A program made the translations under genes and the position numbers. This document shows, piece after piece, positions 41,270-54,860 of a stretch of DNA of 64,000 nt. Numbering within the stretch: position 1 is the stretch's first letter; each line of letters starts with the position of its first letter. This stretch comes from Mustelus asterias (Eukaryota), in assembly GCF_964213995.1 (NCBI RefSeq), contig NC_135804.1, forward strand, positions 95,542,001 through 95,606,000, read 5' to 3'. The notes beneath the pieces were generated by a model, which had not been told where the DNA came from, did not search any database, and saw only the letters and a list, made by a program, of their open reading frames with translations.

Positions 41270-42652
41270 AACAAAGAACAAAGAAAGAACAAAGAACAAT
41301 ACAGCACAGGAACAGGCCCTTCGGCCCTCCAAGCCTGCGCCGCTCACGAGCCCACTAGACCATTCTTTTATATCCCTCTATTCCCAGTCTGTTCATGTGG
41401 CTATCTAGATAAGTTTTAAACGATCGCAGCGAGTCTGCCTCAATCACCTTGCTTGGTAGTGCATTCCAGGCCCCCACCACCCTCTGTGTAAAATACGTCC
41501 CCCTGACATCTGTGTTGAACCTTACTCCCCTCACCTTGAACCCGTGACCCCTTGTGTTCGTCACCTCCGACCTGAGAAAAAACTTCCCTATCTATGCCCT
41601 TCATAATTTTATACACCTCTATTAGGTCACCCCTCATCCTCCGTCTTTCCAGTGAGAACAACCCCAGTTTACCCAATCTCTCCTCTTAGCTAAGATCCTC
41701 CATACCAGGCAACATCCTGGTAAACCTTCTCTGTACTCTCTCCAAAGCCTCCACGTCCTTCTGGTAGTGCGGCGACCAGAACTGGACGCAGTATTCCAAA
41801 TGTGGCCTAACCAACGTTCTTTACAGCTGCAACATCATATGCCAACTTTTATATTCTATGCCCTGTCCAATAAAGGCAAGCATGCCATATGCCTTCTTCA
41901 CCACCCTCTCCACCTGTGCTGCCACCTTTAAGGATCTGTGGACTTGTACACCCAGGTCCCTCTGTGTGTCTATACTCCTGATGGTTCTGCCATTTATTGT
42001 ATAGCTCCCCCTTACATTAGATCTAGCGAAATGCATCACTTCGCATTTATCTGGATTAAATTCCATCTACCATTTCTCCGCCCAATGTTCCAGCCTATCT
42101 ATATCCTGCTGTATTCTCTGACAATGTTCATCACTATCTGCAACTCCAGCAATCGTCGTATCGTCCGCAAACTTACTGATCACACCAGTTACATCTTCCT
42201 CCAAATCATTTATATATATCACAAACAGCAGAGGTCCCAGTACACAGCCCTGCAGAACACCACTAGTCACAGACCTCCAACCAGAAAAAGACCCCTCCAC
42301 TGCTATCCTCTGTCTTCTATGGCTAAGCCAGTTCTCCACCCATCTAGCTAGCTCACCTTTTATCCCGTGAGATTTAACCTTTTGCACCAGCCTGCCATGA
42401 GGGACCTTGTCAAACGCTTTACTAAAATCCACATAGACGACATCCACGGCCCTCCCCTCGTCAATCGTTTTTGTCACCTCCTCAAAAAACTCAACCAAAT
42501 TTGTGAGGCATGACCTCCCTCATACAAAACCATGCTGTCTATCGCTAATGAGATTATTCAGTTCTAAATGCGCATATATCCTATCTCTAAGAATCTTCTC
42601 CAACAACTTCCCTACCACGGATGTCAAACTCACCAGCCTATAATTACCCGGG
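41270..42652 (-). mobile_element. CR1 LINE, 3' part (split by the Gypsy insertion)
   Basis: RT motifs DFSKAFDKVPH, QGCVLGP and KFADD; (GTTCTTT)n tail. Continues at 47409. Confidence 0.92.
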
Positions 42653-42982
42653 TGTGGTGAACCATCGTTGGTTCCCACTAGATAGTACTGAGCCAGGGTC
42701 TGGCCAGTACTACAAGTATGTATATATGTTGCTGTTGGGCTTAGGGATGGGTTGTTCTACTTGTTGCTGTTGGGGTTAGGGTTGGGCTGTTACACCTTGT
42801 ATTATAGTTATTGTGGTACATCCCAGTCGGGCTCCGCCTCCTGGGAGAGGTATAAAGGTCACTGCTCTGTCTGGGACCCCTCAGTCTGGGATCGTGTATA
42901 TAATTAGTAGCTTCGCTGTAACAGCAAATAAAAGCCTTTATTTCCTGAGCATCTCAAGCCTCGTGTGTGATAACGCGCATCA
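42653..42982 (+). repeat. Gypsy 5' LTR (330 bp)
   Basis: TGTGGTGA...GCGCATCA; GC box CTCCGCCTC, TATAAA at 42851, AATAAA at 42927. Confidence 0.95.
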
Positions 42983-43037
42983 ATTTTAGTTGCTGTTAAG
43001 TAAACTCTCGTCGAAAGAAAAAAAAACGATAGAGAGT

Positions 43038-43742
43038 ATGGAGCAGATATTGAAACCTGAACGTCTTACACTGGATCCACGTGCGGTGGGCGCCTCTAAC
43101 ACCTTCGACCACTGGTTGAAATGTTTTGAGGACTACCTGGCAGCCTCCGCAGCGGTCACCACAGATGATGACAGACTCCGGGTCCTCCATGTGAGGGTAA
43201 GCGACACCGTATACCTCGCGATCCGTGCGGCCACCGACTACACAAAGGCCCTCGAGCTTCTTAAGAAGCGTTACATTAAACCGCCAAACGAAATGCATGC
43301 TCGATACCTCTTAGCCACTCGACGACGGCAGCCCGGCGAAACGACGGAAGAATACGCGAACGAGCTCCTACAGCTAGCCAGGGGCTGTAACTGCAAAGCA
43401 GTGTCGGCAGATCAGAATATGAACGACCTCGCTCGAGATGCGCTTGTGGCGGGAATCGGATCATCTTACATCCGACTCAAACTACTGGAGCAAGGTAATC
43501 TTGACCTCACTAAGGCAATAGAACTAGCGGATATGTTGGAGACGGCCTCCAAAAGCCTAGTATTGTATCGTGAAGACCACTTGGAGACAACGTGGCAGGA
43601 GCAGTCGCTGATCCCTCCTCGTCCCTCGGGTTCGAAAAGCTGCGTGATGGCATGCCCACACTCGGGCCTGACGACGGCAGCAGCTCCGGGCAGCCCGCGG
43701 TGTTACTTCTGTGGGGGAGCGAAGCATACTCGGCAACGGTGA
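43038..43742 (+). pseudogene. gag: Gypsy gag, ending at an in-frame TGA within the first zinc knuckle
   Basis: MEQILKPERLTLDP..FDHWLKCF..RRRQPGET..CYFCGGAKHTRQR*; the frame continues into a second knuckle CSTCGKKGHYSKVC. Confidence 0.85.
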
Positions 43743-44516
43743 AACGCTAAAGCTGTGTTGTGCTCCACCTGCGGTAAGAAGGGGCACTATTCGAAAGTAT
43801 GCCGATCTAAACCTGCTTCTAGGAACAGCAGTGCGGCCTACGATTCCTCGGAGCCCGGCTCTTTGTCGTCGGCATCGTCGAGGGTTTCGTCCACGTGCGA
43901 GGCCAGGACGACGCCATTACAGTCGACGGAGTCGGAGATGCGTGACCACCAGGGGTCACTGAGTTTGGCGCCATCACCCACGTGCGACCTATGGGAGCGG
44001 CCATGTTGGTCGGCACCGACCACGAACGACCAGCAGGGGTCATCCTCGTCAATCTCAGCTGCCTGCAGTGGCGCTCATGAACCAACGGTGGCGTCGATCA
44101 TCCTGGACCAGGCCAAGCCTCATAGACTTGACAAGTCTATGATGGACATTCAGGTAAACAACCACTTGATTTATTGTCTGTTTGACAGCGGGAGCACTGA
44201 GAGTTTTATCCACCCAGACGCTGTGAAGCGGTGTGGACTCCGGATTCAACCTGTCAAACAGACAATTTCTATGGCATCAAGGTCCCAGTCTGTCACCGTG
44301 CTAGGGAGTTGCGTGGTAACTTTAACGGTGCAAGGCATGGTTTACGAGCGTTTCAAGCTCCTGGTGTTGCCGCACCTTTGCGCGCCAATACTTCTCGGAC
44401 TAAACTTCATGGTCCACTTGAGGAGTGTAACCCTACAGTATGGTGGGCCACTCCCTCCGCTTTCAGTGGGGAGAACAGCAGCCTCCAAATTGCCTAACGT
44501 AGCCTCTCGACGCTGA
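43743..44516 (+). pseudogene. Gypsy second zinc knuckle and aspartic protease (same frame as gag)
   Basis: CSTCGKKGHYSKVC; protease LFDSGSTESFI ... ILLGLNF. Confidence 0.85.
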
Positions 44517-47023
44517 AGATTACCACACCCTCCCTGTTCCAGAATCTTGTGCCAGGCTGCAAGCCCATTGCGACTAAGAGTAGGCGTTACAGCGCTGAGG
44601 ATCGGATCTTCATTCGATCTGAAGTTCAGCAGCTCCTCAAGGAAAGGATCATACAACCTAGCGCTAGTCCATGGAGAGCGCAGGTCGTGGTGGTCAAGAG
44701 TGGGAACAAACCCCGGATGGTCATTGACTATAGTCAGACCATTAATAGATACACGCAGCTGGATGCGTATCCCCTCCCGCGCATATCTGACATAGTCAAT
44801 CAGATTGCGCAGTACCGGGTGTTCGCCACCATAGATCTCAAGTCTGCCTACCACCAACTCCCCATTCGCCCAGAGGACCGACAATACACGGCTTTTGAGG
44901 CGGATGGTCGCTTGTATCACTTTCTCAGGGTTCCCTTTGGTGTCACCAATGGGGTCTCGGTCTTCCAGCGTGCTATGGACCGAATGGTGGACCAGAACGG
45001 GCTGCGGGCTACCTTCCCGTACCTGGATAACGTCACCATCTGCGGCCATGACCAGCAGGACCACGACACAAATCTCCTGAATTTCCTACGCACTGCATCT
45101 CGCCTGAACCTGACCTACAACAGGGAGAAGTGTGTGTTTCGTACGCGCCGTTTAGCCATCCTCGGATACGTGGTGGAAAACGGGGTCATTGGCCCTGATC
45201 CAGACCGTATGCGTCCCCTCTTTGAACTTCCCCTGCCCACTAGTGCAAAAGCACTGAGAAGATGCTTAGGTTTCTTCTCTTATTATGCACAGTGGGTTCC
45301 CAATTACGCGGACAAAGCCCGTCCGCTCATCAAGTCCACTTCTTTTCCCCTACCACCAGAGGCTCGATTGGCCTTTGATAAACTAAAAGCCGACATCGTG
45401 AAAGCTACGATGCACGCTGTTGATGAGTCCATCCCCTTTCAGGTGGAGAGTGATGCATCTGATTTCGCCTTGGCCGCCACACTTAACCAGGCGGGCAGGC
45501 CCGTCGCATTTTTTTCCCGCACCCTCCAAGGCCCCGAAATTCGGCATTCAGCGGTGGAAAAGGAGGCCCAGGCCATTGTGGAGGCCGTCAGGCACTGGCG
45601 CCATTACTTGGCGGGAAAACGGTTCACCCTGATCACGGACCAGCGGTCCGTGGCGTTCATGTTTAACAACACGCTGAGGGGCAAGATCAAGAACGACAAG
45701 ATCTTGCGGTGGAGAATTGAACTCTCCACCTATAACTATGACATCATGTATCGTCCAGGGAAACTCAATGAGCCCTCGGATGCCCTCTCGCGTGGAACAT
45801 GTGCCAGTATACAGGAGGACCGTTTGCAGGCTCTCCAGAATGACCTATGCCATCCTGGGATCACCCGGCTCTACCACTTTATAAAAGCCCGCAATCTGCC
45901 CTACTCGGTGGAGGATGTCAGGTCCATAACAAGAAGCTGTCAGGTATGCGCGGAATGCAAACCGCACTTTTACCGACCTGACCGGGCACAATTAGTCAAG
46001 GCCACTTGTCCCTTCGAAAGACTGAGTGTCGACTTTAAGGGCCCCCTTCCCTCAACAGATCGGAATGTGTACTTCCTCAATATCATTGATGAGTACTCAA
46101 GATTCCCTTTTGTTGTTCCCTGCTCTGATACATCCGCTGCCACGGTTATCAAGGCATTCCGTGATCTTTTCACCCTGTTTGGGTACCCCAGCTACATTCA
46201 CAGCGACAGGGGCTCGTCGTTCATGAGCGATGACTTGAGGCAATACCTGCTCTCATACGGAATTGCCTCTAGTAGAACCACGAGCTACAACCCTAGGGGT
46301 GACGGACAGGTGGAACATGAGAATGCTACAGTCTGGAAGGCTGTCTTACTGGCGTTGAAGTCAAAAAGCCTTCCAGTCTCCCGTTGGCAAGAGGTGCTCC
46401 CTGATGCGCTCCATTCCATACGCGCACTCCTGTGTACGGCAACCAACGCTACTCCCCATGAGAGGCTGTTTTCATTCCCTCGGAAGTCTTCCTCTGGGAC
46501 CTCATTACCGTCTTGGTTGACGTACTCAGGACCTGTCCTCCTGCGGCGACATGTTAGGGCCCGCAAGTCCGACCCGTTGGTCGAACAGGTCCATCTCCTC
46601 CACGCCAACCCTCAGTATGCCTATGTGGCATACCCTGACGGGCGAGAGGACACGGTCTCAATCCGAGACCTGGCGCCAGCAGGGGACCTAGAAACCCCTG
46701 TCGCTCCCATACCCCCTGTTAGAAACCCCATAACTATTGTTTCCCCTCCGGACACGGCGCGGGCAGCATCGGGACCATTACTTAACCCTTTTACTCCCGT
46801 GTACAGCTTGCCTGAGTCCAGAGGATGGTCGCCACTTCAGGGCGTGTCGGAACTGCTCAATGGATTACCATCACCTCGGGGTCAACCGGCCCGTGAGACT
46901 GTGGAGGAACAGTTGGACATCGCCTTGGGGAGAACGCCACCGCGAGTGCCTACTCCGGTGTCATCGCCGGTATTGAGGAGGTCACAACGACGGTGCGGTC
47001 CCCCTGACCGTCTGAACTTATAG
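44498..47023 (+). CDS. pol: Gypsy pol (RT, RNase H, integrase), open frame shifted -1 relative to gag-pro
   Basis: PRMVIDY, IDLKSAYHQ, PFGVTNG, YLDN; RNase H ESDASD..EKEAQA..TDQ..DALSR; integrase HPG..CQVC, SVDFKG, HSDRG, QVE. No own ATG start; probably non-functional in this copy. Confidence 0.85.
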   Translation, partial: RSLSTLKITTPSLFQNLVPGCKPIATKSRRYSAEDRIFIRSEVQQLLKERIIQPSASPWRAQVVVVKSGNKPRMVIDYSQTINRYTQLDAYPLPRISDIVNQIAQYRVFATIDLKSAYHQLPIRPEDRQYTAFEADGRLYHFLRVPFGVTNGVSVFQRAMDRMVDQNGLRATFPYLDNVTICGHDQQDHDTNLLNFLRTASRLNLTYNREKCVFRTRRLAILGYVVENGVIGPDPDRMRPLFELPLPTSAKALRRCLGFFSYYAQWVPNYADKARPLIKSTSFPLPPEARLAFDKLKADIVKATMHAVDESIPFQVESDASDFALAATLNQAGRPVAFFSRTLQGPEIRHSAVEKEAQAIVEAVRHWRHYLAGKRFTLITDQRSVAFMFNNTLRGKIKNDKILRWRIELSTYNYDIMYRPGKLNEPSDALSRGTCASIQEDRLQALQNDLCHPGITRLYHFIKARNLPYSVEDVRSITRSCQVCAECKPHFYRPDRAQLVKATCPFERLSVDFKGPLPSTDRNVYFLNIIDEYSRFPFVVPCSDTSAATVIKAFRDLFTLFGYPSYIHSDRGSSFMSDDLRQYLLSYGIASSRTTSYNPRGDGQVEHENATVWKAVLLALKSKSLPVSRWQEVLPDALHSIRALLCTATNATPHERLFSFPRKSSSGTSLPSWLTYSGPVLLRRHVRARKSDPLVEQVHLLHANPQYAYVAYPDGREDTVSIRDLAPAGDLETPVAPIPPVRNPITIVSPPDTARAASGPLLNPFTPVYSLPESRGWSPLQGVSELLNGLPSPRGQPARETVEEQLDIALGRTPPRVPTPVSSPVLRRSQRRCGPPDRLNL

Positions 47024-47074: not shown

Positions 47075-47088
47075 AAAGGAGGGATGAA
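47075..47088 (+). promoter_or_regulatory. Polypurine tract
   Basis: AAAGGAGGGATGAA immediately before the 3' LTR. Confidence 0.85.
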
Positions 47089-47403
47089 TGTGGTGAACCA
47101 TCGTTGGTTCCCACGAGATAGTACTGAGCCAGGGTCTGGCCAGTACTACAAGTATGTATATATGTTGCTGTTGGGGTTAGGGATGGGTTGTTCTACTTGT
47201 TGCTGTTGGGGTTAGGGTTGGGCTGTTACACCTTGTATTATAGTTATTGTGGTACATCCCAGTCAGGCTCCACCTCCTGGGAGAGGTATAAAGGTCACTG
47301 CTCTGTCTGGGACCCCTCAGTCTGGGATCGTGTATATAATTAGTAGCTTTGTTGTAACAGCAAATAAAAGCCTTTATTTCCTGAGCATCTCAACCGCGCA
47401 TCA
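47089..47403 (+). repeat. Gypsy 3' LTR (315 bp)
   Basis: By manual comparison it differs from the 5' LTR by 6 substitutions and a net 15 bp deletion near the U5 end. Confidence 0.95.
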
Positions 47404-47408
47404 CCGGG

Positions 47409-53154: not shown

Positions 53155-54738
53155 AACGTAAGAACATAAGAAATAGGAGCAGGAGTAGGCCATCTAGCCC
53201 CTCGAGCCTGCCCCGCCATTCAATAAAATCATGGCTGATCTGAAGTGGATCAGTTCCACTTACCCACCTGATCCCTATAACCCCTAATTCCCTTACCGAT
53301 CAGGAATCCATCTATCCGTGATTTAAACATATTCAACGAGGTAGCCTCCACCACTTCAGTGGGCAGAGAATTCCAGAGATTCACCACCCTCTGAGAGAAG
53401 AAGTTTCTCCTCAACTCTGTCCTAAACCGACCCCCCTTTATTTTGAGGCTGTGCCCTCTAGTTCTAGTTTCCTTTCTAAGTGGAAAGAATCTCTCCACCT
53501 CTACCCTATCCAGCCCCTTCATTATCTTATAGGCCTTTATAAGATCCCCCCTCAGCCTTCTAGATTCCAACAAATACAAACCCAATCTGCTCAGTCTCTC
53601 CTCATAATCAACACCCCTCATCTCCGGTATCAACCTGGTGAACCTTCTCTGCACTCCCTCCAAGGCCAATATATCCTTCCGCAAATGAGGGGACCAATAC
53701 TGCACACAGTATTCCAGCTGCGGCCTCACCAATGCCCTGTACAGATGCAGCAAGACATCTCTGCTTTTATATTCTATCCCCCTTGCGATATAGGCCAACA
53801 TCCCATTTGCCTTCTTGATCACCTGTTGCACCTGCAGACTGGGTTTTTGCGTCTCATGCACAAGGACCCCCAAGTCCCTCTGCACAGCAGCATGTTGTAA
53901 TTTCTTTCCATTTAGATAATAATCCAATTTGCTATTATTTCTTCCAAAGTGAATAACCTTGCATTTGTCAACGTTATACTCCATCTGCCAGATCCTCGCC
54001 CACTCACTCAGCCTGTCCAAATCTCTCTGCAGACCTTCTACGCCCTCCACACGATTCACTTTTCCACTTATCTTTGTGTCGTCTGCAAACTTTGTTACCC
54101 TACACTCAGTCCCCTCCTCCAGATCGTCTATATAAATGGTAAATAGTTGAGGTCCCAGTACCGATCCCTGCGGCACGCCACTAGTTACCATCTGCCAACC
54201 AGAAAAGCACCCATTTATTCCGACTCTCTGCTTCCTGTCGGATAGCCAATCCCCAATCCACGCTAACACCCTACCCCCAACTCCGTGTGACCCAATCTTC
54301 TTCAGCAACCTTTTGTGAGGCACCTTATCAAACACCTTTTGGAAATCCAAAAGCACCGCATCCACCGGTTCCCCTCCGTCATCCGCACTAGTCACATCTT
54401 CATAAAAATCCAACAAGTTCATCAAGCACGACATTCCCCTCATGAATCCATGCTGCGTCTGCTTAATCAAACCATTCTTATCCAGATAGCCTGCTATTTC
54501 TTCTTTAATGATTGATTCCAGCATTTTCCCAACTACAGACGTTAAGCTAACCGGCCTGTAGTTACCTGCCTTTTGTCTATTTCCTTTTTTAAACAGCGGC
54601 GTAACATTAGCCGTTTTCCAATCCGCCGGCACTACCCCAGAATCCAACGAATTTTGATAAATAACCACTAACGCATCCGCTATTACCTCTGACATTTCTT
54701 TCAGTACCCTGGGATGCATTCCATCCGGGCCCGGGGAT
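53155..54738 (-). mobile_element. 5'-truncated young CR1 LINE with an uninterrupted 489 aa RT frame
   Basis: ORF 53250-54719: NYRPVSLTS, QHGF, DFQKVFDKVPH, GVPQGSVLGP, KFADD, through to the native stop; (GTTCTTAT)n tail. Confidence 0.95.
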
Positions 54739-54860
54739 TGGCCATGCTAAATGTAAAACCACCTCCCATCCATTGACTCCATCTATATTTCCCGCTGCCT
54801 TGTAAAAGCAGCCAGCATAACCAAGAACCCAATGTACCCTGATATACTCTCTTCCACTTC

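Follow-up and report, generated by a model that had tools for sequence, protein, structure and literature searches.

The window (64,000 nucleotides of genomic DNA from Mustelus asterias) harbors a Ty3/gypsy element of 4.75 kb, with long terminal repeats (LTRs) that begin with TG and end with CA, a target-site duplication, a polypurine tract, and the coding order protease, reverse transcriptase (RT), RNase H, integrase (PR-RT-RH-IN). The features on which the analysis depends are listed below; a slash marks a predicted RNA cut.

42648..42652, + strand: target-site duplication, left copy (5 bp, CCGGG; identical 5 bases at 47404-47408)
42653..42982, + strand: 5' LTR (330 bp, TG...CA)
42851..42887, + strand: predicted promoter (TATAAA at 42851-42856; initiator-like CTCAGTCT at 42880-42887, with its A at 42883)
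42897..42903, + strand: second TATA-like element (ahead of 42923 by 26 nt; the T-A lineage described below has it interrupted or changed)
42919..42933, + strand: LTR arm, the predicted self-primer segment (includes AATAAA at 42927-42932)
after 42933, + strand: predicted cut in the LTR arm, TAAA/GCC
42984..42998, + strand: self-complementary primer-binding site (PBS), 1 nt past the CA of the 5' LTR
43038..44516, + strand: gag-protease frame (with a pair of CCHC-type knuckles; the window copy has an in-frame stop at 43740-43742)
44498..47023, + strand: RT (YLDN motif)-RNase H-integrase (in a frame different from that of gag-protease in the window copy; without chromodomain)
47075..47088, + strand: polypurine tract
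47089..47403, + strand: 3' LTR (315 bp; 15-nt deletion near its 3' end)
47355..47369, + strand: second copy of the arm, in the 3' LTR (no PBS behind it)
47404..47408, + strand: target-site duplication, right copy (5 bp)

The window copy is broken, with a stop at 43740 interrupting gag-protease and with RT-RNase H-integrase out of frame with it. LINE-type reverse-transcriptase remnants, which we take to be CR1-like, are found at 53250-54746 (minus strand) and at 41583-42640 together with 47409 onward; the Gypsy element seems to have inserted inside the latter. Own-genome searches covered the host genome of 3.68 Gb.

The leader pairs with the element's own LTR

The leader at 42984-42998 is the reverse complement of LTR bases 42919-42933 at 14 of 15 positions, with A42983 between LTR and leader; when the LTR was resampled 20,000 times under a first-order Markov model, no match of this quality arose. 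G42989 is private to the window copy, 28 of 29 other copies carrying T at that leader position, and pairing is 15/15 in 27 of those 29. The first-pass annotation had described this complement, a duplex whose LTR strand has its 3' end 1 nt from the LTR edge, the lack of a canonical tRNA PBS, and the absence of the leader behind the 3' LTR. All four points were borne out: a site starting with TGG just after the 5' LTR, as expected for a tRNA primer, is missing from the element and its relatives, the register of the duplex is fixed across families (see below), and no PBS follows the arm copy in the 3' LTR. The folding energy of the whole 161-nt region is not unusual (z = -0.92), and the case for the duplex therefore rests on covariation rather than on folding energy.

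Conservation between families

From metagenome and genome-bin contigs, 87 related loci were collected, of which 34 lacked a gag start and one had too little upstream DNA; the duplex is present in 44 of the 52 that could be judged. The eight loci without a scored duplex comprise three damaged copies of duplex-bearing families, one locus (L075) that pairs at 10/11, and others with no recognisable junction. A 'CA..TGG' flag raised in the locus survey was disregarded, since in most cases it reflects the start codon of gag. Seven of the contigs carrying this eukaryotic retroelement (L111-L117) are filed in bacterial genome bins, where they probably represent host contamination. No relatives were found in scans of IMG/VR.

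For a closer comparison, 27 families were chosen for a perfect repeat of 11 or more nucleotides; by this choice all 27 leaders match their own LTR, over 11-19 nt, while only 6 of 702 cross-family leader-LTR pairs reach 11 or more. Over their first 11 nt the 27 families have 25 different leaders. Watson-Crick pairing is retained in 26-27 of 27 families throughout -1 to -13, where a single column contains as many as four pair types; it falls to 20/27 at -14 and to about half at -15 and -16, and reaches background from about -18. The register, TAAA/RCC ... CA-N-TTTA, is fixed across families, with the leader starting 1 nt after CA in 25 of 27 and the other two fitting after re-registering. An initiator-like motif, T-T-W-A-G-T, places A at -11 in 19/27 families and G at -10 in 24/27. 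In 17 of 27 families a second hairpin begins exactly at +1 (13% in shuffles), although this hairpin is absent from the window element's family in the same scan. Between the 5' arm and the PBS there are 24-79 nt, and local folding predicts probabilities of 0.83-0.99 for the 11 core pairs. As a control, two other Gypsy groups of the host genome carry TGG sites.

The first-pass annotation had held that loss of the complement in relatives would refute its proposal. Instead, arm and leader covary both within and between families, and the leader-LTR complement is confirmed as real and conserved.

Covariation among copies in the host genome

An exact pattern search of the host genome found the common (C-G) pair of arm position 7 at 135 junctions. 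All 47 double-sided changes at this position are compensatory (45 T-A, 2 G-C), and seven copies have one-sided changes. At position 2, double-sided changes occur in 133 copies and are compensatory in 50/50 of those listed; this allele, found in the genome search, had earlier been hinted at by contigs of four RNA runs. Double changes at arm positions 4 and 6 were not found by exact pattern search of the same genome. The pattern counts are lower bounds, requiring exact matches and fixed spacers, and a T-A sub-lineage with a 51-nt spacer lies outside those for positions 7, 4 and 6. Since the T-A copies form one lineage (43 diagnostic sites) and the two G-C matches are one duplicated insertion, covariation within the genome amounts to three events, not 180.

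Among 60 copies fetched in full, the T-A copies have T in both LTRs wherever both arms could be read. L061 has a change that is present in both LTRs and the leader. In one copy, L279 (L279:70-5318), the 5' LTR and the leader share a compensatory change that is absent from the 3' LTR; its target-site duplication is intact and its LTRs are ~4% apart. In L289 and L290 the LTR complement of the leader is 4 and 3 nt longer, respectively, than in sister copies, and a further copy (L195) has an internal inversion containing part of an LTR. Lineage painting identified the seven one-sided copies as point changes rather than lineage recombinants, and they therefore cannot separate a 5' from a 3' primer. 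The allele pairs of this family provide ready markers for mapping the primer.

These data bear on whether the primer might be a host tRNA fragment or another small RNA. Half-tRNA priming exists in copia lineages (PMC6317226), but the diversity of leaders among the 27 families and the three allele pairs that follow the LTR within a single genome both speak against such a primer here, as does the lack of any Rfam match near threshold over 42600-43100. Because the PBS tracks the LTR allele by allele, a tRNA cannot set it; this alternative, largely refuted by the covariation, is extremely improbable.

Fold-back insertions

Two short copies prompted a search of the host genome for fold-back insertions, which yielded 19 matches representing 18 independent insertions. 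All have the same structure: LTR (1-330), a single A, and an inverted LTR running from 281 to base 1. Target-site duplications are of 5 bp in 16 and 6 bp in one, and are missing from two. At least four sub-lineage haplotypes are represented among the fold-backs. Divergence between their halves is 0-3.2% (0-4% for the two LTRs of whole copies), and they account for 7 of the 135 C-G junctions (~5%). Given the duplications, the several haplotypes, and a divergence between halves like that between whole-copy LTRs, we regard them as repeated, integrase-made by-products.

These insertions (L223-L241, L284) are ~612 bp long with two TG ends, and to annotators would resemble a MITE family; L223-L241 each have a different sub-lineage match and flanks of their own, and L284 is a further fold-back, from the position-2 lineage. 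No description of LTR fold-backs like these was found in the literature on self-priming retrotransposons. They serve as dated fossils of an intermediate in reverse transcription. In Tf1, ~50% of cDNA ends in single-stranded PBS (PMC11042837), which would give a fold-back product. The insertions show that PBS DNA and LTR arm pair on reverse-transcription products. They do not prove the primer, as any nascent plus strand with a copied PBS could snap back.

The frequency of fold-backs also raises the alternative that template switching between inverted repeats, during reverse transcription or host replication, keeps up the complement at the DNA level, and that the complement has no role in RNA. 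The concerted change of 5' arm and leader alone in L279, whose duplication is intact, and the 3 nt of LTR complement added to the leader of L290 fit such a process. Homogenisation, however, leaves unexplained why 27 families share one register and why the tRNA site is missing, and it accounts for neither the conserved TAAA/RCC nor the +1 hairpin. We consider this explanation very improbable.

The poly(A) signal

Of the 27 families, 18 have AATAAA or ATTAAA within the arm, three have it only in the loop, and six have it in neither. The first-pass annotation had offered, beside or in place of self-priming, a duplex that hides the 5' poly(A) signal. The duplex might indeed serve chiefly this purpose, with priming left to something else: the hexamer falls within so many arms, the leader stands only behind the 5' LTR, a transcription start at 42883 would place the hexamer inside the transcript, and there is a precedent in the HIV-1 polyA hairpin, an RNA stem over AAUAAA able to repress 5' polyadenylation (PMC2645353). 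Nine families, however, keep the duplex with no canonical hexamer in it, three of them with the hexamer unpaired in the loop; moreover, occlusion does not need the fixed 1-nt offset from CA, and it leaves the element without a primer. A search for poly(A)-tailed retrocopies that would show use of the hexamer gave no match, which is not proof of their absence. Hiding of the signal as the main function thus appears improbable, if slightly less so than template switching. It fails as a conserved feature and is at most secondary, although hexamer and arm overlap so often that an additional role is suggested, which occlusion may have in the 18 families.

Classification of the element

Pfam and PDB searches found no chromodomain in the window integrase, nor in any of nine sequences scanned (the window tail and eight homologues) or in 120 homologues by precomputed Pfam annotation, bearing out the initial impression that none is evident. 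The nearest named proteins are from rays and sharks (70-80% identity), followed by marine assemblies and a sea anemone (53-68%). In comparison with Ty3, RT-RNase H of the element scores 189 bits, lower than the 268 bits that a tRNA-site Gypsy group of the host genome scores against Ty3. In a quick RT-RNase H tree (78 rows, with only two outgroups and one long, broken row, L083), the clade is separate from the two TGG-site Gypsy groups of the host genome (SH-aLRT 98-99). No chromovirus was found in that genome, in which none of 17 Chromo matches has Pol nearby, and DUF4939 had no match anywhere in it. The host genome also contains a young Gypsy family (L242-L254, L260) whose open frame spans ~1,995 aa and whose TGG site lies 4-5 nt past the LTR.

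Of 50 aligned homologues, 40 have YxDN as the RT motif; of 60 copies in the host genome, 46 have YLDN, 5 have another motif and 9 were not read. Ty1 with this Asp-to-Asn change retained polymerase activity but no longer transposed, a defect partly rescued by RNase H mutations (PMC2148107). The clade may be included among the unplaced mollusc clades of PMC6238403; in four of the five supplements of that paper, no matching motif was found.

Probable priming with the element's own RNA

Taken together, the covariation, fixed register and fold-backs lend good, if indirect, support to the tRNA-independent self-priming first suggested for this locus, the part of the initial interpretation that stands; occlusion as a conserved function does not. 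As judged from sequence, the element, like Tf1, likely uses its own RNA instead of a tRNA to start reverse transcription, through the 5' copy of the arm (probability roughly 0.6). Self-priming by one arm copy or the other, 5' and 3' readings combined, is highly probable.

According to this proposal, the 5' arm would fold onto the PBS through a 13-bp core, the RNA would be cut at TAAA/RCC, and the freed RNA 3' end would prime minus-strand DNA 1 nt from the CA end. In Tf1, RNase H makes the corresponding cut. Plus-strand strong-stop DNA would then end in single-stranded PBS, whose normal partner would be the minus strand; in ~5% of junctions, this PBS would snap back on its own LTR arm, to be integrated as LTR plus inverted LTR. 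With the PBS re-templated from the LTR in every cycle, both arms would change together, and short snap-back extensions could account for pairing past 11 nt. For such lengthening, L290 (three extra paired bases) and L279 are single cases; the L279 pattern, with its unchanged 3' LTR, is not predicted by simple primer copying.

The Tf1 primer is 11 nt long (PMC7175516), and the A at -11 in 19 of 27 families looks as if transcription began 11 nt before the predicted cut. Several observations run against so close a parallel. The better promoter, which retains TATAAA in 56 and the initiator-like element in 54 of 58 5' LTRs, puts the predicted start at 42883, with 36 nt between it and the arm, whereas an abundant lineage has a broken version of the TATA that would suit initiation at -11; the primer of the window family would therefore not be the first 11 nt of the transcript, as it is in Tf1. 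Pairing that is near-universal to -13, and often extends to -19, also argues against an 11-nt 5' primer.

The primer could alternatively be the arm copy of the 3' LTR, of the same or a second packaged RNA, released by the same cut. Pairing to -13 in 26 of 27 families and its gradual decay to -19 resemble an internal segment without a cap boundary, and a primer beginning at U3 would also yield the fold-back structure directly. Against this stands the 5' arm itself: being so near the PBS, with such high core pair probabilities, it would, if transcribed, be a competitor of the 3' copy for the PBS. Furthermore, haplotype sharing is about as frequent between the halves of fold-backs as between the LTRs of a normal copy, and hence gives no sign of two different RNAs. 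We regard a 3'-arm primer as possible but doubtful, and favor the 5' arm.

Similarly tentative is a more far-reaching reading, which concerns a large animal Gypsy clade extending from sharks and rays to cnidarians: that this clade may have invented self-priming independently of the chromoviruses, with one motif doubling as poly(A) signal and end of the primer, this primer coming from the 3' LTR or another RNA molecule, with the PBS rebuilt in every cycle by snap-back on the element's own strong-stop DNA, and with a natural YxDN polymerase site of the kind that abolishes transposition in Ty1.

Comparison with known systems

Self-priming has been described for Tf1/sushi elements, Tcn1 and copia TAR (PMC6317226, PMC4600332, PMC5341516, PMC3601003, PMC6934838); proof exists for Tf1, while predictions concern mainly chromoviruses and a few lineages of copia. 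In the literature, no case was found in a chromodomain-less animal Gypsy clade, although Butler 2001 or Repbase Reports may describe the clade itself. If the proposal is true, this clade shows that self-priming is common in animals and has arisen again: a single vertebrate genome contains hundreds of its young copies, and many of its families are from invertebrates. Self-primed elements would presumably be out of reach of tRNA-fragment silencing, and annotation that requires a tRNA site misses them.

The closest parallel is the Tf1/sushi group of chromoviruses, in which Tf1 and Tf2 of S. pombe, Tj1 and Tosmo likewise lack a tRNA site. There, too, the PBS adjoins the 5' LTR and pairs with an LTR segment, and the group shares with the window clade a core of ~11-13 bp, extra stems beside the duplex, and a plus strand able to end in PBS DNA. 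The window clade differs in having no chromodomain, in its YxDN site, and in a duplex that takes in the poly(A) hexamer in 18 of the 27 families; its neighboring stem is seen as a local hairpin (17/27 families) rather than as a demonstrated three-duplex pretzel, and the arm of the window family may sit 36 nt inside the transcript. The element is one that, in our reading, works like Tf1 but in which the chromodomain, one of the marks of the Tf1/sushi group, is lacking.

In its compact build, with two CCHC knuckles and no chromodomain, the element resembles Gypsy elements of the Mag lineage (A/B/C clades, SURL). Like the TGGCGACGAG-site group of the host genome, it has one residue more in the RT D-Y-x-x-T-x-N motif, presumably a further Mag-lineage likeness; that group, however, has a TGG site and falls outside the window clade in the RT-RNase H tree.

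Tcn1 and the copia TAR elements (Houba, Osr-1) are predicted plant self-primers based on the same kind of LTR complement (PMC6317226), but belong to a chromovirus branch or another superfamily and to other hosts; neither covariation nor fold-back evidence was seen for them. They show that self-priming arose more than once. Finally, the HIV-1 polyA hairpin, which likewise covers the hexamer, is local, is present at both ends, and belongs to a tRNA-primed virus, whereas in the window element the partner of the hexamer-bearing arm occupies the PBS position and is found at the 5' end only.
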